This document shows positions 1 to 9,054 of a DNA stretch of 9,054 nt, in pieces. Where the stretch lies: the IMG/VR virus record IMGVR_UViG_2778261179_000015, positions 1-9,054 of that record; one strand, given 5' to 3'. Every line of letters starts with the position of its first letter. Positions within the stretch are counted from its first letter, which is position 1. Both the position numbers and the translations under genes were made by a program. This DNA comes from a virus. Taxonomy: Duplodnaviria > Heunggongvirae > Uroviricota > Caudoviricetes. Below the pieces are notes generated by a model. That model was not told where the DNA came from, did no database searches, and saw only the letters and a program-made list of their open reading frames with translations.

Positions 1-1239
1 ATGAGCAGCGCAATTCATAGACTTAGCGACACTCTTTTACGAAAATTAAGCGGATCACCAACCACAAAAAACGCCTTTTTTAATGACGGTGGCAATCTTA
101 GCGTAAGACATTCCACCAGCGGCCTGTTAACCTGGTATTTCACTTACAGGGCCGGAACTGGCAGGCAGGTATCACCGGAACGCCTGAGACTGGGCAACTA
201 TCCCGATCTGAGCCTGAAAGCAGCCAGGGAAAAAGCGGCACAGTGTCGCGCCTGGCTGGCGGAGGGGAAAAATCCACGCCATGAGCTTAATCACACAGTG
301 CAGGAAGCGTTAGCCCCCGTGACGGTTAAGGACGCGCTCACTTACTGGCTTGAGTCGTATGCGAAGGAAAAGCGCACTGACCACGAATCACTGAAAAGCC
401 GTATCAATAAGCACATAATCAGCCAGATTGGTGCTATGCCGCTGGATAAATGCGAGCTACGCCACTGGCTGGCCTGTTTTGACCAGCTTGCTAAGCGTAA
501 TCCGGTATCAGCCGGCTTTTTGTTGCAGGTATGCAAACAGGCGCTTAAGTACTGCCGTAAACGTCGCTACGCCGTCAGTAACGTTCTTGATGATATGGTC
601 GTAGGTGATGTGGGAAAAAAAGCAGAAATAAGCGAGCGAGTGCTAACAAACAAGGAGCTTGGCGAGCTACTCCGCGCACTGGATGAAAAAATTTTCCCGC
701 CGTACTACAGCGCTTTAATTCGCCTTCTGATTGTCTTCGGATGCCGTACCACTGAGCTAAGACGCTCCGAGGTTCGGGAATGGGATTTTAAAGAAATGCT
801 CTGGACTGTGCCGAAAGAACACAGCAAAACGAAGGTAGCAATATTCAGGCCAATACCGGAAGCGATCTTGCCGTTCGTCATGAAGCTGGTGGAGCAGAAC
901 AGGCACACGGGCTTATTGCTTGGAGAACTGAAAGGGCAATCATCCGTAGCAGAGTACGGAAGAACGGCACACAGACGCATTAATCAAGCCCCCTGGTCGT
1001 TGCACGACATCCGGCACACATTTACAACCATGCTGAACGATTTAGGCGTGGATCCGCATATTGTCGAACAGCTTACTGCCCACCAGATGCCAGGAATGCA
1101 ACGCGTCTATAACCACTCCCGTTATCTCGATGCAAAGCGTGACGCTCTTAATCTATGGGTAGACCGTCTCGAGCTTCTCCAGAACAATGATGAAAAAATC
1201 GTTGTTATGACCCCGCGAATTTACCCCCAAAATTCTTGA
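1..1239 (+). CDS. int: Tyrosine integrase, P4-type (N-terminal arm-binding domain plus catalytic domain)
   Basis: 412-aa ORF. The N-terminal segment (LTWYFTYRAGTGRQVSPERLRLGNYPDLSLKAAREKAAQCRAWLAEGKNP) matches the pattern of P4-family integrase N-terminal domains. The C-terminus carries the tyrosine-recombinase motifs HDIRHTF and VYNHSRYLD with the catalytic Tyr. The ATG sits at window position 1, so upstream att/tRNA context is not visible. Confidence 0.9.
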   Translation: MSSAIHRLSDTLLRKLSGSPTTKNAFFNDGGNLSVRHSTSGLLTWYFTYRAGTGRQVSPERLRLGNYPDLSLKAAREKAAQCRAWLAEGKNPRHELNHTVQEALAPVTVKDALTYWLESYAKEKRTDHESLKSRINKHIISQIGAMPLDKCELRHWLACFDQLAKRNPVSAGFLLQVCKQALKYCRKRRYAVSNVLDDMVVGDVGKKAEISERVLTNKELGELLRALDEKIFPPYYSALIRLLIVFGCRTTELRRSEVREWDFKEMLWTVPKEHSKTKVAIFRPIPEAILPFVMKLVEQNRHTGLLLGELKGQSSVAEYGRTAHRRINQAPWSLHDIRHTFTTMLNDLGVDPHIVEQLTAHQMPGMQRVYNHSRYLDAKRDALNLWVDRLELLQNNDEKIVVMTPRIYPQNS

Positions 1240-1280
1240 CAAATTACGGCTGTTTTTTCTTTAAGAGATTACAGCCGTGA

Positions 1281-1320
1281 ATAGATCTTAGAATATCGGG
1301 GAATATCTGCAAATATCTTC
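1281..1320. repeat. Tandem 10-bp direct repeats (RAATATC core) in the int-alpA intergenic region; possible regulator binding sites
   Basis: gaatatcggg / gaatatctgc / aaatatcttc at 1291, 1301 and 1311, preceded by a degenerate copy atagatctta at 1281. The 10-bp phasing puts the sites on one helix face. They lie in a 420-bp AT-rich intergenic region. Confidence 0.35.
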
Positions 1321-1660
1321 TCTTTATATGTGTCAACTATCGAAAAAAATTGAAATGTCTTCTTCTGAACTTTTATTCTCTGTTTCTTGATTGTTCCAAC
1401 ACTTGATGGTTTATCTATTTGTTTTTAATGAGATAATTCAAGCGTAATGCCAAGTAACGACATTTTTTGTTGCATCGCTTAAAAACTCGTGACACGATTT
1501 TAAACACTAACGAGCTTCTACGAACCTTAGCGAACAAAGCCTTTAGCAAGGTTGTGTTTTTAATTTAAGAGGTGAAAAAAGAATCTAAGTAATATCCGAT
1601 CTCATATATCTACAGCTAAGAGAAAAGTTTATATACGTAATTTTTTATGTAGGTTTTTGT

Positions 1661-1870
1661 ATGCGTGAAATAAATGAAGATCGCGTAATCCGTGAGGATG
1701 AATGTCGTAAGTTAACTGGAGTGTGTCGCACTACACGCTATGAACTGGAGAAAAAAGGGAATTTCCCGTCACGCCGTAATCTGGGCGGTCGTTCTGTAGG
1801 TTGGCTGCTGTCCGAGGTTATGGAATGGGTTAAAAGCCGGGATCGCATTAATTCAGGCAAGGCAGCGTAA
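1661..1870 (+). CDS. alpA: AlpA-family transcriptional regulator / excisionase-like HTH protein
   Basis: 69-aa ORF. The sequence ECRKLTGVCRTTRYELEKKGNFPSRRNLGGRSVGWLLSEVMEWV fits the AlpA (CP4-57 regulatory protein) HTH pattern, and its position just downstream of a P4-type integrase is typical. A weak SD (agg) lies 7 nt upstream of the ATG. Confidence 0.85.
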   Translation: MREINEDRVIREDECRKLTGVCRTTRYELEKKGNFPSRRNLGGRSVGWLLSEVMEWVKSRDRINSGKAA

Positions 1871-1885
1871 AGGGGGGCATATGAC

Positions 1886-1920
1886 ACATAAAACAAAGGC
1901 GACCCGGATCAGAGGTCGCC
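1886..1920 (-). terminator. Putative intrinsic terminator for the minus-strand RHH gene
   Basis: Perfect 7-bp stem GGCGACC (1898-1904) / GGTCGCC (1914-1920) with a 9-nt loop. On the minus strand it is followed by TTTGTTTTATGTG. It sits in the gap between the convergent alpA and RHH genes. Confidence 0.45.
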
Positions 1921-2011
1921 AGTGGGAATACACTAAACATAAGCCCAGCCATCATAGCGATTTGCTGGCTGGTGGGCAATGTGATCAGTGTGCTGGCTTG
2001 CTGGTTGGCTG

Positions 2012-2185
2012 TCAGCCTTTGGGCTCGATACCGCGCTGTTGTAATTCTTTGCGGAGTATTCGTTTAATCCAAGTAGCTAATGAGGTGTCGCCGTCTGCCT
2101 TGGCTGCTTCCTCAAGTTGCGCTCTAAATTCTTCTGGTAGTCGCATTTGGTATGGTGGCGATCGTTTCTCTAATGGTGTTGACAT
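2012..2185 (-). CDS. Arc/MetJ-type ribbon-helix-helix DNA-binding protein (putative element repressor)
   Basis: Hand-translated minus-strand ORF of 57 aa: MSTPLEKRSPPYQMRLPEEFRAQLEEAAKADGDTSLATWIKRILRKELQQRGIEPKG. It is below the length cutoff of the ORF track. The segment PYQMRLPEEFRAQLEEAAKADG has the beta-strand/helix signature of Arc-family RHH proteins. SD AAGGG lies 8 nt upstream, an in-frame stop lies immediately upstream of the ATG, and the start codon abuts a palindromic operator. Confidence 0.75.
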   Translation of the reverse strand: MSTPLEKRSPPYQMRLPEEFRAQLEEAAKADGDTSLATWIKRILRKELQQRGIEPKG

Positions 2186-2225
2186 GGTAATTACCCTTAA
2201 TTACTATAGTTACATGGTAATTACC
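2182..2225. promoter_or_regulatory. Divergent promoter/operator region: two copies of the palindrome GGTAATTACC in a 14-bp direct repeat, flanking the palindrome ACTATAGT
   Basis: ACATGGTAATTACC occurs at 2182-2195 and 2212-2225, 30 bp centre to centre. Each copy contains the perfect 10-bp palindrome GGTAATTACC. ACTATAGT (2203-2210) is itself palindromic and includes a TATAGT -10-like hexamer. TTACCATT half-site repeats follow at 2221-2240. The region lies between the RHH gene start and the downstream + operon. Confidence 0.55.
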
Positions 2226-2321
2226 ATTGTACTTACCATTACACAAAAAACAACGCCCCGCACTGTAGGAGCAGTAACGGGGCGTCTAACCACCAACGAT
2301 AGCAGAAGTATCGAGGTCGCT

Positions 2322-2525
2322 ATGAGAAATCATACCACACACCCGCAAGGGCGGGATTCGCACAACCTGAATAAATACATCTGGCGTTTTATCGCCCTGA
2401 GCACGGCACAACCGCGCGTGATTACCATTGAGGCCAGCAGCGAACAGGAAGCACGCCAGCAATCCCCGGCTGGCTGCGTGATGGTATTCGCCGCCCGTAT
2501 TCGTCAGGGGGTATGCCATGCCTGA
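2322..2525 (+). CDS. Small protein, possibly Icd-like (host cell division inhibitor family); first gene of the early/replication operon
   Basis: 68-aa ORF taken from the in-frame ATG at 2322 inside the 1881-2525 ORF-track entry. SD GAGG lies 5 nt upstream. Its stop overlaps the next start (ATGCCTGA). The family assignment is a recollection of small proteins annotated Icd-like beside alpA in P4-like prophages and was not verified. Confidence 0.45.
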   Translation: MRNHTTHPQGRDSHNLNKYIWRFIALSTAQPRVITIEASSEQEARQQSPAGCVMVFAARIRQGVCHA

Positions 2526-2838
2526 TATGTCAAATTACCAGTACCTGATTAATCCGCATTTTAACTGTGAGCATGATATTGCTAAAAAGGTTTATTCCGC
2601 TGCGGATGGGGCTACTGACAATATATCAATGGCTGTTGCGTCAATTGGTAGCCTGATGTGGCATGCGTCAGAAAATAAGGACTATGACGAAAAGGCTATG
2701 CGCATTGATATGGGTAATATCGGTTTGTTACTGGCAATGCTTGGGCAGTTTGATATTTCGTTACGGTGCACCATTGAAAATGCCACAGATGCATTAAATG
2801 CCATAAAGAAAGCGAATACTGATTCAAATCGGGGATAA
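2518..2838 (+). CDS. Hypothetical protein (106 aa), function unknown
   Basis: Strong SD AGGGGG 6 nt upstream. Translationally coupled to the upstream gene by an 8-nt overlap. No recognisable motif. Confidence 0.6.
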   Translation: MPDMSNYQYLINPHFNCEHDIAKKVYSAADGATDNISMAVASIGSLMWHASENKDYDEKAMRIDMGNIGLLLAMLGQFDISLRCTIENATDALNAIKKANTDSNRG

Positions 2839-2844
2839 ATAATC

Positions 2845-3144
2845 ATGAGAACATATTTATCTGGCTTGACTGCCAGCGGTTATGCACACCCCAAAATTAT
2901 CCCCGGCGCTATTTATCTGGATAAGAACGGTAACAGAGTAACGGTAAAAGAACTGATGTTTGACCGTGTGTATTTTATTCGTGATGGCTATTCATTTCAT
3001 AGTTCGCTGAACGTGGAGATCTTTATTAGCAGATTCAGGCGGGAAATCCCGCTTTCCAGAAATAACCATGTGTCACGTGTGGATGTGGATAAAAAACTAC
3101 AGGAACTGAAAAACATGATTGCCGCGTGGAGAGAGCAGAAATGA
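2845..3144 (+). CDS. Hypothetical protein (99 aa), function unknown
   Basis: SD GGGGA upstream. Its stop overlaps the replication gene start in an ATGA arrangement. No recognisable motif. Confidence 0.6.
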   Translation: MRTYLSGLTASGYAHPKIIPGAIYLDKNGNRVTVKELMFDRVYFIRDGYSFHSSLNVEIFISRFRREIPLSRNNHVSRVDVDKKLQELKNMIAAWREQK

Positions 3145-5264
3145 AAAAAGCGCCAAATTTAAAACACCAGCCGCGTGACAAAATGACGGAAGTCATCATT
3201 TTTGCGGGTAGTGATGCGTGGGCACATGCGAAACAGTGGCAGGAACAGGACGGGCGACTGGCTGGCGATAACGTGCCACCTGTCTGGCTTGGAGAGCAAC
3301 AACTTGCCGAACTGGACAACCTGCAAATCGTACCGGACGGACGCTATCGCGTGCGTCTCTATCAGGCGGGGTTATTGCGTCCGGGGCTTGTTAATACCAT
3401 CGGGCAGAAACTGGCAGTGGCAGGTGTCAGGGATGCTGATTATTACCCTGAAGGAATGCACAGCCAGAAACGGGAGAACTGGCGCGAATATCTGGAACGT
3501 GAACGGGCAGAGCAGGCGGAAAAGAAAAAGGTAGTTGAACTGCCTGTAAAGAAAAAAGAGCCATGCTATCAGGATGATGAATTAAAGCCCCGCGTTGAAA
3601 GTCGCGTCGATGGTGTTTTCTGGGTAACGCCCAAAGTGGATAAGCAGTCAGGCGAAATTATCCGGCCTGAGACGTGGTTATGTTCTCCGCTTGAACTACT
3701 GGGAACGGGGACGATCGGTAAAGAACATTACCGCGTGATGCGCTGGAAAAAATCAGCAAACCATGAAGTCATCACAATGGCGATCCCGTGTGGTGGCATT
3801 GGCGACCGTGACGGCTGGCGGTTACTTAAAGATCACGGGCTGAACGTGACAACCAACGGCAAATACAGGGCAATCCTGGCGGACTGGATGCAGTTAAGCG
3901 GAAGCCATGAGGAATGGCAGTTAAGCACAACAACGGGCTGGCATTTTGGCGCGTACATCATGCCGGACGGTTCGATCATTGGTGATTCTGAAAAACCGAT
4001 CCTGTTTACCGGAAAAAGCGCCGCGATTAACGGTTATTCCGTGGCGGGTACGGCGGAGGGCTGGCGCGAGAGTGTGGCGCGGCTGGCTGGCGGTAATGCC
4101 TCAATGATGCTGGGTGTGGCAACGTCACTGGCAGCGCCTTTAATTGGCCTTGTGGGTGCTGACGGCTTCGGGGTGCATCTTTTCGAACAGTCATCGGCAG
4201 GTAAGACCACCACGCAGAACATCGCATCAAGTTTATGGGGAGAGCCGGACGCACAACGGCTTACCTGGTACGGAACGGCGTTAGGTATCGCCAACGAGGC
4301 AGAGGCGCACAACGACGGGCTGTTACCCCTGGATGAAATAGGCCAGGCCGGAAACGCGCGGGAGGTGTCCACGTCAGCCTATACGTTGTTTAACGGCTCC
4401 GGGAAATTACAGGGGGCGAAGGACGGCGGCAACCGGGAGATAAAACACTGGCGCACGGTGGCAATCAGCACCGGAGAAATGGACGTTGAGACATTCCTCA
4501 AAACGGAGGGGATAAAAGTCAAAGCGGGGCAGCTTGTCCGCCTGCTTAACGTTCCGATGGAAAAAGCCACGCACTTTCACGAATACAGCACCGGAAAGGC
4601 GCACGCAGACGCGTTAAAGGATGCCTGGACAGAAAATCACGGGGCAGCGGGTCGTGAGTGGGTTAAATGGCTGGCAGGCCACCAGCAGGAGGCAAAGGAT
4701 ACGGTAAGGGAATGCCGCGAACGGTGGCGCAACCTGATACCGGAGAGCTACGGCGAGCAGGTCCACCGCGTGGGTGAGCGTTTCGCCATACTGGAGGCCG
4801 CGCTTGTGCTTTCCGGTCATGTAACTGGCTGGGCCGCGCAGGAATGCCGGGACGCAATACAGCATAACTTTAATGCCTGGGTGAAGGAGTTCGGCACGGG
4901 TAACAGGGAATTTAAACAGATGGTTGAACAGGCTGAGGCGTTTTTGTCGTCGTTCGGGTTCAGTCGATACCTTCCTTACCCAAACAGTGATGAACGTGAT
5001 TTACCGATTAAAGACCTTGCCGGATACAGAAAGGGGAGTATCAGAAATGAAGATGATGAGTTCCGTTTTTACACGTTTCCTCATGTGTTTGAGGGGGAGA
5101 TCGCACAGGGATTTAACCCGTCCCACTTTGCCCGCGCGTTGAGTGCTGCCGGAATGCTGGAAGCGGGTAACGATCGCCGTTACAAGAAAAAGGCTCTCGG
5201 CAAAATTGGGGGGAAGCAGCATGTTTTTTACGTGCTGATGTTCCAGCCTGAGGCAGAAGATTAA
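3141..5264 (+). CDS. Replication initiator, putative primase/helicase-type P-loop NTPase (Pri-Rep-like)
   Basis: About 707 aa from the ATG at 3141, with SD GGAGAG 7 nt upstream. The ORF track begins at a GTG at 3126. Walker A motif EQSSAGKTTTQN and Walker B-like motif GLLPLDEIG are present. Size, position after alpA and before an iteron array match satellite replication proteins. Confidence 0.8.
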   Translation: MKKAPNLKHQPRDKMTEVIIFAGSDAWAHAKQWQEQDGRLAGDNVPPVWLGEQQLAELDNLQIVPDGRYRVRLYQAGLLRPGLVNTIGQKLAVAGVRDADYYPEGMHSQKRENWREYLERERAEQAEKKKVVELPVKKKEPCYQDDELKPRVESRVDGVFWVTPKVDKQSGEIIRPETWLCSPLELLGTGTIGKEHYRVMRWKKSANHEVITMAIPCGGIGDRDGWRLLKDHGLNVTTNGKYRAILADWMQLSGSHEEWQLSTTTGWHFGAYIMPDGSIIGDSEKPILFTGKSAAINGYSVAGTAEGWRESVARLAGGNASMMLGVATSLAAPLIGLVGADGFGVHLFEQSSAGKTTTQNIASSLWGEPDAQRLTWYGTALGIANEAEAHNDGLLPLDEIGQAGNAREVSTSAYTLFNGSGKLQGAKDGGNREIKHWRTVAISTGEMDVETFLKTEGIKVKAGQLVRLLNVPMEKATHFHEYSTGKAHADALKDAWTENHGAAGREWVKWLAGHQQEAKDTVRECRERWRNLIPESYGEQVHRVGERFAILEAALVLSGHVTGWAAQECRDAIQHNFNAWVKEFGTGNREFKQMVEQAEAFLSSFGFSRYLPYPNSDERDLPIKDLAGYRKGSIRNEDDEFRFYTFPHVFEGEIAQGFNPSHFARALSAAGMLEAGNDRRYKKKALGKIGGKQHVFYVLMFQPEAED

Positions 5265-5287
5265 CCCCCTGTGTGAGGTGAAAAGTT

Positions 5288-5602
5288 GCGGGTTATGCGG
5301 GTTACTCTGTGTATAAGTGCATTAACTGCATGAATAAAAAGGAAATCAATAACCCGCACGTAACCCGCAAAACGGCAGTTATAACCCGCAAAAGTGCGAT
5401 TATAACCCGCAGATGAATAACAGGAAGTGACAGCAAACAGCCACGCGTAACCCGCAGAAAAAACCCCGTTTGCGGGTTATTTTGAGCATTTTGCGGGTTA
5501 CGCCACGGCTAAACAGTAAACAGTTAATTTTGTAATGTATTGATATTAAGGAATAAAAAATACTTAGCAAGCGAAGATAACCCGCTAACCCGCATAACCC
5601 GC
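5288..5602. repeat. Replication origin: array of about 12 iterons (R)TAACCCGC / GCGGGTTA(Y) flanking AT-rich segments
   Basis: GCGGGTTA orientation at 5288-5296, 5297-5305, 5472-5480 and 5493-5501. TAACCCGC orientation at 5349-5357, 5361-5368, 5381-5389, 5402-5410, 5447-5455, 5577-5585, 5586-5593 and 5594-5602. AT-rich stretches lie at 5505-5576 and 5607-5626. The array starts immediately downstream of the replication gene stop. Confidence 0.75.
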
Positions 5603-5644
5603 ACTGTTTTGTATATATATATACGAAAAATTGAGATCTGAACT

Positions 5645-5887
5645 ATGAAGGCAAACCGCAAACAACCACACTACCGCGCTATTGACCTTACAGAGCACTG
5701 GCTGAGAGTGGCGATAAAAATCATCGACCGAAACACGGGGGAAGGATATGCAAAAGCACATCCCGAACTGATAAGCGCATTCATGACAACGGCAGCTGCA
5801 AACTTTGCCACGTTGACAGAACGGGAGATTGCCGAAGCGGAACAGGTGACAACCATCAACGTTAAAACCGGAGAGCAGACAGCATGA
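5645..5887 (+). CDS. Hypothetical protein (80 aa), function unknown; co-operonic with ssb
   Basis: ORF directly after the origin. Its stop overlaps the ssb start (ATGA at 5884-5887). No recognisable motif. Confidence 0.5.
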   Translation: MKANRKQPHYRAIDLTEHWLRVAIKIIDRNTGEGYAKAHPELISAFMTTAAANFATLTEREIAEAEQVTTINVKTGEQTA

Positions 5888-6306
5888 CAGCACAGATAGC
5901 GGCTTACGGACGGCTGGTGGCTGACCCGCAGTTAAAGACCACCAGCAAGGGTACACAAATGGCGATGGCTAGTATGGCGGTCCCCCTTCCGTGCAGCCAG
6001 GCAGATGACGGAACGGCGATGATGTGGTTATCCGTCCTGGCGTTTGGCAGACAGGCCGACGCACTGGCAAAACACCACAAAGGCGAACTGGTGAGCGTGG
6101 CGGGTAACATGCAGGTAAGCCAGTGGACAGGCCAGAACGGCGAAACGCGGCAGGGCTGGCAGGTTATCGCAGACAGCGTGATCAGTGCGCGAACAGCGCG
6201 ACCGGGCGGCAAAAAAGGCCAGCAGGGGCAGGCCACTGACGCACTGAACAGGGCAAAACAACAGTCGGGGAATGATGATCCGTACGGCGATAATATACCG
6301 TTTTAA
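5884..6306 (+). CDS. ssb: Single-stranded DNA-binding protein (SSB) homolog
   Basis: 140 aa. The OB-fold core aligns by eye with E. coli SSB (IAAYGRLVADPQLKTTSKGTQMAMASMAV and WLSVLAFGRQADALAKHHKGELVSVAGNMQVSQWTGQNGETRQGWQV). A Gly/Gln-rich linker is followed by the C-terminal tip DDPYGDNIPF, resembling the SSB acidic tail ending DDDIPF. Confidence 0.8.
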   Translation: MTAQIAAYGRLVADPQLKTTSKGTQMAMASMAVPLPCSQADDGTAMMWLSVLAFGRQADALAKHHKGELVSVAGNMQVSQWTGQNGETRQGWQVIADSVISARTARPGGKKGQQGQATDALNRAKQQSGNDDPYGDNIPF

Positions 6307-6323
6307 ATTCTGCAAACAAAAAG

Positions 6324-6352
6324 ATGCCGGAAAAAAATAGATTTTCCGGCAT
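6324..6352. terminator. Stem-loop at the end of the ssb operon (possible terminator; the T-tract is on the minus strand)
   Basis: ATGCCGGAAAA (6324-6334) pairs with TTTTCCGGCAT (6342-6352) around a 7-nt loop. The plus strand has an A-tract before and no U-tract after. The minus strand has CTTTTTGTTTG after the stem. It separates the replication module from the capsid module. Confidence 0.4.
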
Positions 6353-6517
6353 GCTACATAAATCCCGACCAAAGGAAGTAAATACATTAACACGAATTAT
6401 CAGCACTGAAGTTGTCACGGCATATTTTATACAACATTGCACTTGGTTGCATGTATTCGCATAGCAGACATCGGTAATAGAATATATTCACAATTATTTG
6501 TAATGAATGTAAAGAGG

Positions 6518-7564
6518 ATGAGTATGGTTGACTTATATTCGCCTACACAGCTTGTGCAGGTGGCTAATGCTGAAGATGTGCAAAAAAAATTAAATGCGTT
6601 GTTTACCAGTTTGTTTTTCACTCGCTCGGTAATGTTTGAATCGAGAGACATTATTCTTGATACGATCGACGATCCAAATATCCCGATCGCGGCGTTTTGC
6701 TCTCCTATGGTGGGCAGTAAAGTTTCACGAGATGAGGGATACGAATCAAAAACAATTCGTCCAGGTTATATGAAGCCGAAAAGCAGCATTGATCCAAATA
6801 AGTTAGCTGTGCGCCCTGCTGGTGTGTCACCTGAGCAATACAATGCTTTTGGGGCGCGTAATATTAAAGTTAAACAGGCGATTGTAAATCAGGCTAAAGC
6901 TATTCGTGCACGTATTGAATGGCTTGCTGTTCAGGCAATCACAACGGGGAAAAATATCATTGAGGGCGATGGTATTGAACGTTATGAGCTGGACTGGAAT
7001 ATAAAACCACAAAATATCATCACTCAGTCTGGCGGTACTGAGTGGTCAGGTAAGGATAAAGAAACTTTTGATCCAAATGATGATATTGAGAGCTACGCAG
7101 AATTTAGTGAGGGCGTCACTAATATCATCATTATGGGTGGTAATGTATGGAAGAAATACCGTTCATTCAGAGCGATAAAAGAGGCTTTGGATACCCGTCG
7201 TGGTTCTAATTCCGAACTGGAAACGGCCCTTAAAGACCTTGGTGATTCGGTGAGTTTTAAAGGGTATATGGGCGATGTTGCGATTGTTGTTTACAGCGGG
7301 CGTTATACCGACGAGGACGGAACAGAAAAACATTTCCTTGATCCTGATTTGATGGTGCTTGGCAATACGGCTCTTCAGGGGATTGTCGCCTATGGCGGTA
7401 TTCAGGATCCGGAGCTAATCCGAATGGGGCTGACTAAAGCCGAACTTGCACCGAAAAACTATATTGTGCCTGGTGATCCGGCTATTGAATATGTGCAGAC
7501 ACATTCAGCACCACAGCCAATACCGGCCCGCATCAATCGTTTTGTTACCGTTCGCATTGGCTAA
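6518..7564 (+). CDS. Major capsid protein, phage lambda gpE-like (HK97-fold family)
   Basis: About 348 aa from MSMVDLYSPTQLVQ, which parallels the lambda gpE N-terminus MSMYTT. SD AAGAGG is immediately upstream. Extended similarity to recalled lambda gpE includes ITQSGGTEWS, KEALDTRRGSNSELETALKDLG and GDVAIVVYSG. The ORF track starts earlier at 6437, probably upstream of the true start. Confidence 0.85.
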   Translation: MSMVDLYSPTQLVQVANAEDVQKKLNALFTSLFFTRSVMFESRDIILDTIDDPNIPIAAFCSPMVGSKVSRDEGYESKTIRPGYMKPKSSIDPNKLAVRPAGVSPEQYNAFGARNIKVKQAIVNQAKAIRARIEWLAVQAITTGKNIIEGDGIERYELDWNIKPQNIITQSGGTEWSGKDKETFDPNDDIESYAEFSEGVTNIIIMGGNVWKKYRSFRAIKEALDTRRGSNSELETALKDLGDSVSFKGYMGDVAIVVYSGRYTDEDGTEKHFLDPDLMVLGNTALQGIVAYGGIQDPELIRMGLTKAELAPKNYIVPGDPAIEYVQTHSAPQPIPARINRFVTVRIG

Positions 7565-7573
7565 GGGGGAGCA

Positions 7574-7915
7574 ATGGCTACTCATTACACTGAACTCATG
7601 GCTGGCACTGAAGCACTGGTGACTACGCTGGGGATATTTTCAGCTAATAAAGGGGTAATTCCTGCATTTACGCCACTGATGCAGGAAGATGCAACAGGTG
7701 CACTGGTGGTATGGGATGGTTCGAGCGTAGGTAAAGCGGTTTATGTTTCCGCTGTACAAATCGACACAGCGAAAAAAACACAGGCACAGGTTTATAAGAC
7801 AGGTGTTTTAAATGTTGATGCTCTGAACTGGCCTGAGTCTGTAAAAGAACTGTCGGCAAAGGTTGCCGCGTTTGTTGGCTCAGGTATTTCTGTTCAGCCG
7901 CTGGCTCGTGTGTAA
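7574..7915 (+). CDS. Head decoration protein, phage lambda gpD-like
   Basis: 113 aa. The segment TPLMQEDATGALVVWDGSSVGKAVYVSAVQIDTAKKTQAQVYKTGVLNVDALNWPE parallels recalled lambda gpD (TPLMLDTSSRKLVAWDG...FYKSG...LWPE). SD AGGGGGA upstream; lies 10 nt after the capsid gene stop. Confidence 0.8.
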   Translation: MATHYTELMAGTEALVTTLGIFSANKGVIPAFTPLMQEDATGALVVWDGSSVGKAVYVSAVQIDTAKKTQAQVYKTGVLNVDALNWPESVKELSAKVAAFVGSGISVQPLARV

Positions 7916-7926
7916 AGGGGGATACA

Positions 7927-8310
7927 ATGCAGAATCATTACAATGACCTTAAGCCAATTGCCGAAATGATGTATCCGGATCCAGCAGTAGAGGAATTAAA
8001 GGCTATTGCTGACAAAATGCGTTTAAGTGAACGCCTTGTTGATATGAATCAGGTGATGGAACTTACTACCCTTAGCCGTCGCACATTGCTAAACCTTGAG
8101 GCTCGCGGAGAGTTCCCCGAACGCGTACAGGTTACGGAAGGGCGTAAGGCCTGGTATTTAAGTGAAGTGATCGACTGGATAAACAATATTCCTCGATCTT
8201 CTGAATATTGCCGCGTACCTGTCCCAAAAAAGCCAGATGCGGCGCTATGCCTCAAGATTGAGCGTGTACGTCGCAATGCACGGGATGGTCGCTATAAGTT
8301 GATTGGTTGA
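7927..8310 (+). CDS. AlpA-type HTH domain protein (127 aa) with N- and C-terminal extensions; putative regulator or DNA-specificity factor
   Basis: The central segment MNQVMELTTLSRRTLLNLEARGEFPERVQVTEGRKAWYLSEVIDWINN matches the AlpA/excisionase-type HTH pattern and resembles the alpA product at 1661-1870. SD GGGGG 5 nt upstream. The gene ends about 25 bp before the cos core. Confidence 0.7.
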   Translation: MQNHYNDLKPIAEMMYPDPAVEELKAIADKMRLSERLVDMNQVMELTTLSRRTLLNLEARGEFPERVQVTEGRKAWYLSEVIDWINNIPRSSEYCRVPVPKKPDAALCLKIERVRRNARDGRYKLIG

Positions 8311-8335
8311 TGAAATTAGGGCCCGTTCTGGCTGG

Positions 8336-8400
8336 CGGGTCCTTTCCGGCGATCCGGTAGGCTACGGGGCGGCGACCTCGCGGGTTTTCGCTATTTATGA
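8336..8400. other. Lambda-type cohesive end site (cosQ-cosN), with the 12-nt cohesive-end sequence GGGCGGCGACCT at 8367-8378
   Basis: Window 8336-8366 (CGGGTCCTTTCCGGCGATCCGGTAGGCTACG) matches the recalled right end of the lambda genome (CGGGTCCTTTCCGGTGATCCGACAGGTTACG) with 4 mismatches. Window 8367-8400 (GGGCGGCGACCTCGCGGGTTTTCGCTATTTATGA) matches the first 34 nt of the lambda genome exactly. Similarity is lost downstream of 8400, in the presumptive cosB (8401-8500). Confidence 0.85.
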
Positions 8401-8511
8401 GCCTTTTTCGGGTGCTGGTGGTGGTTTTGTTGTTCGCTCTATCTCTATGAATAAAAAGGAAAAGATAAAGCCAATACACCAACCTGAAACATTACTTAAG
8501 TGGGGATATTG

Positions 8512-9054
8512 ATGAAATCGCACCTGATGAACAAAAAAAACATGGCGCAAAGCTGCCGTGTAAGTGCGACAGCGTTCGACAAGTGGGGAGTGACTCCCGT
8601 TGAACGTAAAGGCCGCGAGGCGTTTTATGATGTTGCCAGCGTAATAGACAATCGGGTTAGCAATGCAATTAACCAGATTACAGACGACAAAGGCGAGATT
8701 GATAATGATGAGCTTTTGCGAGTCAGGATCAGATTGCTGACAGCGCAGGCGGAGGCGCAGGAGCTTAAAAACGAGCGCGAACGCGGCGATGTGATTAGTA
8801 CGGAATTTTGTATATATGCGCTTTCAAAACTGGCGAGTCAGATTTCTTCAATCATGGGCAGCCTGCCGCTTACTATGCAAAGGAGCTTCCCACAGATGAC
8901 CCCCGCCATGCTGGATGGCCTGAAAAAAGAAGTTGTCAGAGCCTGTAACGCATGCACAAAACTTGATGAAAACATCCCGCGAATGCTGTCCGATTATCTG
9001 ATGGAAACTACCGGAAATGTGCCTGATAAGTTTCAGCCGGATAAAGACAAGTAA
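8512..9054 (+). CDS. terS: Terminase small subunit, phage lambda Nu1-like
   Basis: About 180 aa from the ATG at 8512, with SD GGGGA upstream. Alternative starts exist at 8527 and 8542, and the ORF track begins at a GTG at 8500. The C-terminal two thirds (RLLTAQAEAQELKNERERGDVISTEFCIYALSKLASQISSIMGSLPLTMQRSFP...LDENIPRMLSDYLMETTG) parallels recalled lambda Nu1 (RLTRAQADAQELKNARDSAEVVETAFCTFVLSRIAGEIASILDGLPLSVQRRFP...LDELIPGLLSEYIEQSG). The N-terminal DNA-binding region is more diverged. The gene lies immediately downstream of cos, as in lambda. Confidence 0.85.
   Translation: MKSHLMNKKNMAQSCRVSATAFDKWGVTPVERKGREAFYDVASVIDNRVSNAINQITDDKGEIDNDELLRVRIRLLTAQAEAQELKNERERGDVISTEFCIYALSKLASQISSIMGSLPLTMQRSFPQMTPAMLDGLKKEVVRACNACTKLDENIPRMLSDYLMETTGNVPDKFQPDKDK

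Follow-up and report, generated by a model that had tools for sequence, protein, structure and literature searches.

Why would a phage satellite encode a single-stranded DNA-binding protein (SSB) of its own, and why would the gene sit next to a replication origin, overlapping a small neighbor? These questions are raised by ssb and the gene immediately upstream of it, here called ORF80, in a window of 9,054 nucleotides, by which we mean the whole stretch of DNA that was analyzed. An answer has to consider what kind of element carries the pair, what the two proteins are, and whether the genes travel together.

Element type and gene order

The window is an Escherichia coli Gram-negative PICI of the EcCICFT073 type. 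Gram-negative PICIs were recognized by a unidirectional series of int, alpA, pri/rep, ori, and late/packaging genes that covers about 10 kb between host genes, and the window displays this layout in its gene content, as does a 98.4% identical island in its chromosomal placement. All genes of the window lie on one strand, as annotated by profile matches. Their order (int, alpA, Icd, DUF4222, DUF927, ori, ORF80, SSB, capsid E, decoration D, AlpA-like, Nu1-like TerS) bears out a preliminary description of the DNA, which had called the SSB satellite encoded. The main blocks are as follows.

5' part of the window, one strand: tyrosine integrase, then alpA, Icd, and DUF4222 (profile matches)
3126-5264, + strand: DUF927-type primase/helicase (the PICI pri-rep), 712 aa (PF06048 DUF927, E = 2.5e-48; phrog_1139 DNA primase, 606 bits)
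Between the DUF927 primase/helicase and the capsid E gene: replication origin, ORF80, and SSB, in this order along the window
3' of SSB: lambda E-like major capsid, lambda D-like decoration, second AlpA-like HTH, and Nu1-like TerS (profile matches)

Positions 2255 to 9054 share 98.4% identity with an island in E. coli 1EC213 that is located between nfeF and tRNA-Ile/mug. In that island, PGAP calls the product of ORF80 a "hypothetical protein" and SSB a "single-stranded DNA-binding protein" (WP_000126634.1); the primase/helicase that precedes the origin of the ORF80-ssb cassette bears the PGAP name "DUF927 domain-containing protein." The int/alpA module (positions 1 to 2255) stems from a different lineage than the remainder, and so the element is a mosaic. 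A search of Rfam at the gathering threshold gave no match anywhere in the window. In the literature, helper-dependent induction, replication, and packaging have been shown only for EcCICFT073 and a few other such elements.

Replication origin and the ORF80-ssb junction

The region between the primase/helicase and the capsid gene contains the following features.

5287-5603, both orientations: iteron origin with 12 copies of TAACCCGCA (repeat search and shuffle test)
About 5611-5623, after the iterons: TATATATATA run (read from the repeats)
5645-5887, + strand: ORF80, encoding an uncharacterized 80-aa protein (ORF table)
5870-5875, + strand: Shine-Dalgarno sequence GGAGAG inside ORF80, for ssb (read from the sequence)
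5884-5887, + strand: ATGA stop/start overlap of ORF80 and ssb (read from the sequence)
5884-6306, + strand: SSB, 140 aa (ORF table)
6324-6352: 11-bp GC-containing hairpin just 3' of the ssb stop, with a T-run on the minus strand only (scored as minus-strand terminator-like)

The origin is located between the stop codon of the primase-helicase gene (5264) and the start of ORF80 (5645). Eleven of its 12 iterons are exact and one carries a single mismatch, and they form two groups around an AT-rich stretch at about 5505-5575. In the window as a whole, TAACCCGCA was matched 14 times against an expectation of 2.24, a count that none of 200 shuffles reached. Origins of E. coli PICIs have been described as lying downstream of pri and consisting of two sets of iterons with an AT-rich region between them (PMC6092414), and the origin in the window is built in this way. 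The preliminary description had placed the two genes "directly after the origin," and the 12 iterons do precede ORF80. It had also reported an 80-aa upstream partner that overlaps ssb by ATGA; the coordinates are exact, and the overlap is visible in the sequence.

ORF80 has a weak ribosome-binding site of its own (GAG at 5633-5635). As read from the sequence, ssb is probably translationally coupled to ORF80, and the two genes would be transcribed together. Simple scans of positions 5200 to 5645 detected neither a sigma-70-like promoter upstream of ORF80 nor a + strand terminator. The 3' edge of the cassette is marked by the hairpin at 6324-6352, and homology to other PICIs stops at 6310.

A bacterial-type SSB with a host-like tip

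The 140-aa product of ssb is a genuine SSB of the bacterial type and would be expected to bind ssDNA. It matches Pfam PF00436 (E = 1.7e-15; 57.4 bits, with a cutoff of 26) and TIGR00621 ssb (59.3 bits, with a cutoff of 53.95), as well as PHROG 44 (SSB). A sequence search of the PDB returned 28 matches, of which 27 are SSBs and the last is a weak catalase match near the threshold. We took an OB fold to be a five-stranded barrel that resembles solved SSBs and has its third and fourth strands joined by a helix, and the AF2 model has such a fold over residues 1-103 (pLDDT, 80-91), with strands at 2-11, 16-19, 25-36, 44-54, 69-82, and 88-101 and a helix at 55-62. When this model was compared with the PDB by Foldseek, the best 50 matches were all bacterial SSBs (E from about 1e-9 to 1e-7). 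The preliminary description had proposed an SSB with an OB-fold core, and profiles, model, and fold search agree with it; placement in a non-SSB OB-fold family was looked for by profile and fold search, and both placed the protein among the SSBs.

The remainder of the protein, residues 104-140, is predicted to be disordered (pLDDT, <50), and the layout is therefore an OB fold (1-103), an indel-rich linker (104-130), and a tip, DDPYGDNIPF (131-140). Comparison of 35 homologs revealed that the OB core is conserved, while the linker is shortened by 13 residues in some variants and lengthened by 9 in others. This indel pattern is more telling than a comparison of the three regions across the 97 closest homologs, which are all more than 70% identical and hence uninformative. 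In the same 35 homologs, D136 and F140 of the tip are invariant, and I138 and P139 show conservation of at least 90%. An aromatic residue (Y, F, or W) usually occupies the position six before the C terminus, as F171 does in the E. coli chromosomal SSB (EcSSB). The tip consensus is aromatic-x-D-x-I-P-F, and a tip resembling D-x-[IL]-[PS]-F ends about 110 of the 120 best database homologs. The disordered linker thus leads into a conserved acidic tip with an I/L-P-F end, and the host-like C-terminal tip noted in the preliminary description is both present in the product and kept across its homologs. Pairwise dN/dS values for ssb range from 0.085 to 0.18, and the gene is under strong purifying selection.

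EcSSB (PDB 1EQQ and 1EYG) shares with the PICI protein the OB fold, the disordered linker, and the aromatic-x-D-x-I-P-F tip. Of the four DNA-binding aromatics of EcSSB, three have counterparts in the PICI protein: W54, F60, and W88 correspond to W48, F54, and W81, all three of which are invariant among the 35 homologs. Nevertheless, the two proteins are only 26% identical over the core and differ in length (140 aa versus 178 aa). The PICI linker is about half as long as that of EcSSB and is basic/polar rather than Gly/Gln/Pro rich. Also, W40 of EcSSB is replaced by Gln, and His55, at the EcSSB tetramer interface, is replaced by Leu (Leu49 in the alignment), and so the oligomeric state and binding mode may differ from those of EcSSB. 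The tip is less acidic, GDNIPF versus DDDIPF, and affinity for partners may be weaker because the last five residues include a single acidic one (DNIPF versus DDIPF).

Bacterial-type SSBs with a host-type tip are found in the replication modules of other mobile elements, including Staphylococcus and Streptococcus phages, SPP1 (G36P), and conjugative plasmids. Among phage-database matches, however, identity to the PICI protein is at most about 30%, and the closest are SSBs of Staphylococcus and Streptococcus phages. Relatives at 50 to 69% identity come only from enterobacterial chromosomal islands and from small circular elements, the latter being island-like "plasmids" in Klebsiella, Enterobacter, Serratia, and Sodalis. 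These values indicate that the SSB belongs to a PICI/island-specific lineage. Capture from a coliphage was rejected, because the best phage matches reach about 30% and belong to Gram-positive phages; capture from a conjugative plasmid was rejected because the closer plasmid matches turned out to be island-like elements, small and circular, or else misassigned chromosomes.

At the level of identity, then, the SSB gene is already known, as evidenced by its name in RefSeq, its presence in EcCICFT073, and the listing of SSB as a replication family (PMC10111431); it is an ordinary, correctly annotated gene. In that listing, Mageeney et al. grouped SSB with primase and DUF5906 in the "Replication" category of GN-PICIs (PMC10111431). 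Our literature search found no functional study of a PICI SSB and no published phenotype for either the small ORF or the ssb gene of EcCICFT073.

A conserved family of small, predicted helical proteins

The preliminary description saw no recognizable features in the 80-aa protein. This holds for Pfam, NCBIfam, and PADLOC, none of which gave a match, but not for PHROGs, where ORF80 matches phrog_1231 end to end (E = 7e-49; 77 of 80 residues covered) and so belongs to a broad conserved family, itself without annotation or a Pfam model. When 1.8 billion representatives were scanned exhaustively with HMMER, 199 clusters matched at an E value of ≤1e-3, and a profile search extended the family to 598 clusters. 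Members are 70 to 110 aa long, and conservation extends across Proteobacteria to identities as low as about 30%. They share the motif A-I-x2-I-D-x3-G-x-G-Y-A-K-x-H-P-E-L-I-A-A-F-M-x-T-A-A, whose conserved loop, GxGYAKxHPEL, served as the mark of membership and is present in ORF80. Five residues, D28, G34, A36, H39, and L42, are invariant in 81 sequences.

AF2 predicts that ORF80 is a helical hairpin made of helices 8-31 and 40-79 (mean pLDDT, 82; core, >90), with the conserved motif in and around the hairpin turn. A fold search found no solved or similar structure, the fold gave no functional clue, and a Pfam scan of 56 family members yielded noise only. Among E. coli copies of ORF80, dN/dS ranges from 0.21 to 0.55. 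The gene is under purifying selection, and these values argue that it encodes a real protein and is not merely a leader ORF. The breadth of the family, together with its predicted alpha-hairpin fold, is a modest new point.

Separable genes in a portable cassette

Comparison with EcCICFT073 shows how far the arrangement is shared. Like the window, EcCICFT073 has a primase, an iteron ori, a small ORF, and ssb with a 4-nt overlap, followed by capsid E-like and decoration D-like genes. Its pair is C_RS06990 (85 aa) and C_RS06995 (SSB, 136 aa); the small ORF is 92% identical to that of the window and the SSB 69%, with a different linker length and the tail DDPYGDDIPF. The surroundings differ more, as the EcCICFT073 replicase is of the D5_N/DUF5906 type rather than DUF927, its iterons are of the TCTACC type rather than TAACCCGCA, and PerC and one extra ORF are inserted between ssb and the capsid gene (c1499), with the decoration protein being c1500. 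Homology between the window and CFT073 begins within the 5'-terminal part of the small ORF. Within E. coli, the cassette is preceded by three unrelated replicases, each with its own iterons: DUF927 in the window, D5_N/DUF5906 in CFT073, and, where only the 80-aa gene is present, the RepA-type AAA_25 helicase of L007. This portability across replicase types is a modest new point.

Other PICIs reveal that the two genes are separable. In L005, a capsid-forming PICI that lacks the right half of the origin, ssb is kept with only the last 33 nt of ORF80, the stretch that holds the coupling junction. In L006 and L018, ssb follows a P4-family primase and is found without ORF80; small ORFs in these islands overlap ssb by the same 4 nt as ORF80 but are unrelated to each other, and that of L006 is also unrelated to ORF80. 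Conversely, in L007, a RepA-type AAA_25 helicase precedes an ORF80 homolog, and there is no ssb. An obligate two-gene unit was therefore rejected, with ssb alone in L005, L006, and L018 and ORF80 alone in L007. That ssb is repeatedly coupled in translation to a small ORF is a further new point, likewise modest.

Distant members of the ORF80 family were read at nine distinct loci. A large mobile-element primase-helicase lies within 2 kb or two genes at six of the nine (L004, L008, L011, L013/L014, and L016). The replicase is of the DUF927 type in L008 and L016 and of the DUF5906 type in L011 and L004, while the neighbor in L013 and L014 is a 957-aa protein without a Pfam match. No primase was found nearby in the other three: L009 and L010 lie in early regions of Pseudomonas prophages, next to a DNA methylase, and L015 is near phage lysis genes. 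An SSB gene is adjacent at none of the nine, which indicates that the coupling of ORF80 to SSB is specific to enterobacterial PICIs. Separability of the genes, the lack of SSB neighbors among remote ORF80 relatives, and the three loci with no primase nearby count against the cassette role favored below. A peptide-pattern scan of genome contigs with ORF80 recovered two loci only, its patterns being too specific.

The DNA of the pair was also counted in complete E. coli genomes, as follows.

Small-ORF DNA, 5426 complete E. coli genomes: 1617 with a match, 1124 with ≥80% coverage
ssb DNA, 5426 complete E. coli genomes: 1819 with a match, 1083 with ≥80% coverage
Contiguous pair DNA, 5426 complete E. 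coli genomes: 1869 with a match, 1065 with ≥80% coverage

A proposed role in satellite replication

The preliminary description had offered two roles for the SSB, support of the satellite's own replication and competition for the partners of host SSB. We lean toward the explanation that the pair is a portable replication-zone cassette of EcCICFT073-type PICIs, in which the SSB is a nonessential accessory that makes use of host SSB partners. The C-terminal tail of SSB is a hub at which host replication and repair proteins dock. On induction of the island by a helper phage, the island primase-helicase would open the adjacent iteron origin, and the SSB would most likely coat the single-stranded DNA exposed there at that time. 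Its tip could then couple the coated ssDNA to host proteins that bind the SSB tail, such as Pol III chi, PriA, and nucleases/helicases (ExoI and RecQ). In this way, the satellite may gain an SSB supply of its own while it and its helper replicate together.

Two observations bear on how much the satellite would depend on this supply. First, the helper prophage of EcCICFT073 has been placed at icd (PMC10111431), and CFT073 carries a lambdoid prophage next to icd. In the stretch of it that was read, which runs from int to the first head genes and includes Q, no gene is annotated as an SSB. Given the absence of an annotated SSB in that stretch, the satellite would bring its own supply. Second, a segment of EcCICFT073 that holds only pri and ori is described as sufficient to replicate a plasmid (PMC6092414), from which it follows that the SSB is probably not essential and not needed for the basic firing of the origin. 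The role of the satellite protein is better viewed as accessory, because host SSB can take its place.

The part played by ORF80 is proposed with low confidence and from context. It would be translated immediately upstream of ssb and may serve as an accessory factor of the replication module, where we place it because remote members of its family are usually found next to, or not far from, the primase-helicases of mobile elements.

Alternative explanations

An unlikely alternative is interference, in which the SSB tip diverts host SSB partners, or the protein displaces host SSB on helper DNA, and thereby throttles helper or host replication. Such a function would suit a tip that is conserved and host-like, and there are precedents that point in this direction. 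For instance, the title of a paper on SPP1 refers to replication strategies that promote viral and disable host replication in vitro (PMC3561973). Also, the phage SSB-like protein Bas52_0087, which resembles the PICI protein in being a mobile-element SSB-like protein with a host SSB tip (FDDDIPF), has been proposed to disturb host ExoI (bioRxiv 10.64898/2026.04.29.721553). Nevertheless, published work argues against strong interference: when post-ori genes of EcCICFT073 were singly expressed, only c1503 (rpp) cut lambda plaques (PMC6739421). That paper does not name ssb, whose inclusion among the cloned post-ori genes we infer from position. The lack of a PADLOC match weighs against interference too.

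Another reading, which we consider speculative and doubtful, makes more of ORF80. Here, ORF80 and SSB would form a self-contained, horizontally exchanged "replisome-access" cassette that gives the satellite priority over its helper in access to host Pol III and repair factors. The invariant D/G/Y/H/P/E loop of ORF80 might bind a host replisome or repair component or SSB itself, and the other small ORFs found in the coupled slot might be alternative solutions to the same task.

It is quite improbable that the pair serves in protection or counterdefense, with the SSB, perhaps together with ORF80, shielding satellite ssDNA or concatemers from nucleases or acting as a decoy for immunity that senses SSB or ssDNA. 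Immune systems with such triggers exist, as AbpAB is reported to be triggered by phage SSBs (PMC10732053), and DRT10 has been reported to be triggered by a phage SSB. The latter trigger is Bas52_0087, for which engagement of host ssDNA-processing factors has been proposed (bioRxiv 10.64898/2026.04.29.721553); this known defense trigger differs from the PICI SSB in that it is phage encoded and much larger and has two OB folds. PICIs are known carriers of accessory functions, and three small ORFs unrelated to one another occupy the slot between ori and ssb in different PICI lineages, which is typical of arms-race loci. However, neither protein matches defense-system profiles (PADLOC-DB, E up to 0.1), the cassette is inside the replication zone rather than at a known accessory hotspot, and dN/dS for ssb, at about 0.1, reflects purifying rather than diversifying selection. 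A defense or antidefense system was rejected for want of profile support.

We also regard as quite improbable a role in making a substrate for packaging, whereby SSB and ORF80 would promote recombination-dependent or rolling-circle replication, not theta replication, and so yield concatemers for cos packaging. SSBs of mobile genetic elements often work with annealing proteins, which counts in favor of this idea, as does the position of the cassette between the replication and packaging modules. Moreover, DNA of E. coli PICIs is packaged as phage-length concatemers (PMC10111431, citing PMC6092414). On the other hand, the annotation of the island contains no recombinase or annealing protein, and fold searches revealed nothing in ORF80 that resembles a recombination mediator.

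Finally, it is highly improbable that ORF80 lacks a protein function and merely delivers ribosomes to ssb by translational coupling, since this pure leader role, which would fit the 4-nt overlap with its internal Shine-Dalgarno sequence, the unrelated small ORFs that other PICIs hold in the same position with the same overlap, and the weak ribosome-binding site of ORF80, is contradicted by the conservation of the family with invariant residues even in contexts without ssb, by the dN/dS values, by the confidently predicted fold, and by the persistence of the gene without ssb in L007.

Implications for satellite-helper conflict

PICIs are among the commonest mobile elements of E. coli, and roughly one in three complete genomes of the species carries DNA homologous to the ORF80-ssb pair. 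How these satellites secure replication resources while their helper replicates is poorly understood, and the conflict between satellite and helper has so far been described mostly at the level of packaging. Should the SSB and its small partner enhance replication of the satellite, or divert host proteins that interact with SSB, they would add a replication-level layer to that conflict.

The small-ORF slot upstream of ssb

The overlap of a small ORF with a PICI-type ssb extends to two P4-primase-type PICI-like elements, as follows.

L006:5702-6435, small ORF of 100 aa before ssb, 4-nt overlap with ssb
L018:7212-8035, small ORF of 126 aa before ssb, 4-nt overlap with ssb

Comparison of the L006 100-aa ORF with the L018 126-aa ORF revealed no relationship, and the L006 ORF is not related to the 80-aa family of the window either. 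Because different occupants share the same 4-nt overlap with ssb in L006 and L018, a coupled small-ORF slot recurs 5' of ssb. In some islands, namely, that of Shigella flexneri (L003, ~6230-6560) and hits H85 and H86, an extra ORF of ~100 aa separates the 80-aa gene from ssb, and the overlap is thereby broken.

Relative to the window, the capsid-forming PICI of E. coli 10035776-3 (L005:4823-5034) is missing the right-hand iterons and the AT-rich region, and its 80-aa ORF is reduced to the last 33 nt, with the Shine-Dalgarno sequence and ssb retained. This layout could be a deletion derivative defective in replication or, alternatively, a different origin layout.

Two further features of the window lie within or just beyond ssb.

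5922-5930, iteron copy with one mismatch, TGACCCGCA, within the ssb coding sequence
6324-6352, perfect 11-bp hairpin, ATGCCGGAAAA...TTTTCCGGCAT, 18 nt past the ssb stop, with a T-run on the minus strand only

The iteron copy, which is also found in L005, is probably a chance occurrence. On the 3' side, homology of the ssb cassette ends at the hairpin, whose T-run lies on the minus strand, yet all genes of the island are on the plus strand.

Mosaicism and related elements

Window positions 1-2255, the int/alpA end, have no match in the E. coli 1EC213 island (L001), which is 98.4% identical elsewhere, and the window element is therefore a mosaic. Its integration module is swapped relative to that of the 1EC213 island, and its attachment site presumably differs as well. 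The first base of the window is exactly that of the int ATG and the last is the stop of the terS-like gene, as would be expected of a record from a satellite catalogue.

The terminal ORF of the window lies downstream of a second AlpA-like gene.

7927-8310, AlpA-like helix-turn-helix (HTH) gene
8500-9054, terminal Nu1-like ORF

The match of the terminal ORF to lambda Nu1 is confined to the C-terminal half (PF07471 profile positions 78-161), and no similarity was detected to L002:7660-8091, the sole post-capsid ORF of EcCICFT073 compared. The product may serve in packaging redirection and carry a different DNA-binding region at its N-terminus.

L018 is a 22.9-kb circular, nonmobilizable "plasmid" of K. 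pneumoniae (NZ_CP033626.1) that carries PICI-like genes (antirepressor, DUF4222, Icd-like, primase-helicase, ssb, PerC, and integrase) alongside a tape-measure gene. The record could represent either an excised satellite or a phage-like element assembled as a plasmid.

Finally, an 80-aa family member with a 55% identical core is encoded at L004:5956-6186, in a methanotroph phage-like region of a Methylovulum MAG, with a Toprim/DUF5906 primase and a large terminase that contains an intein nearby. The range of the 80-aa family thus extends well past the enterobacteria.
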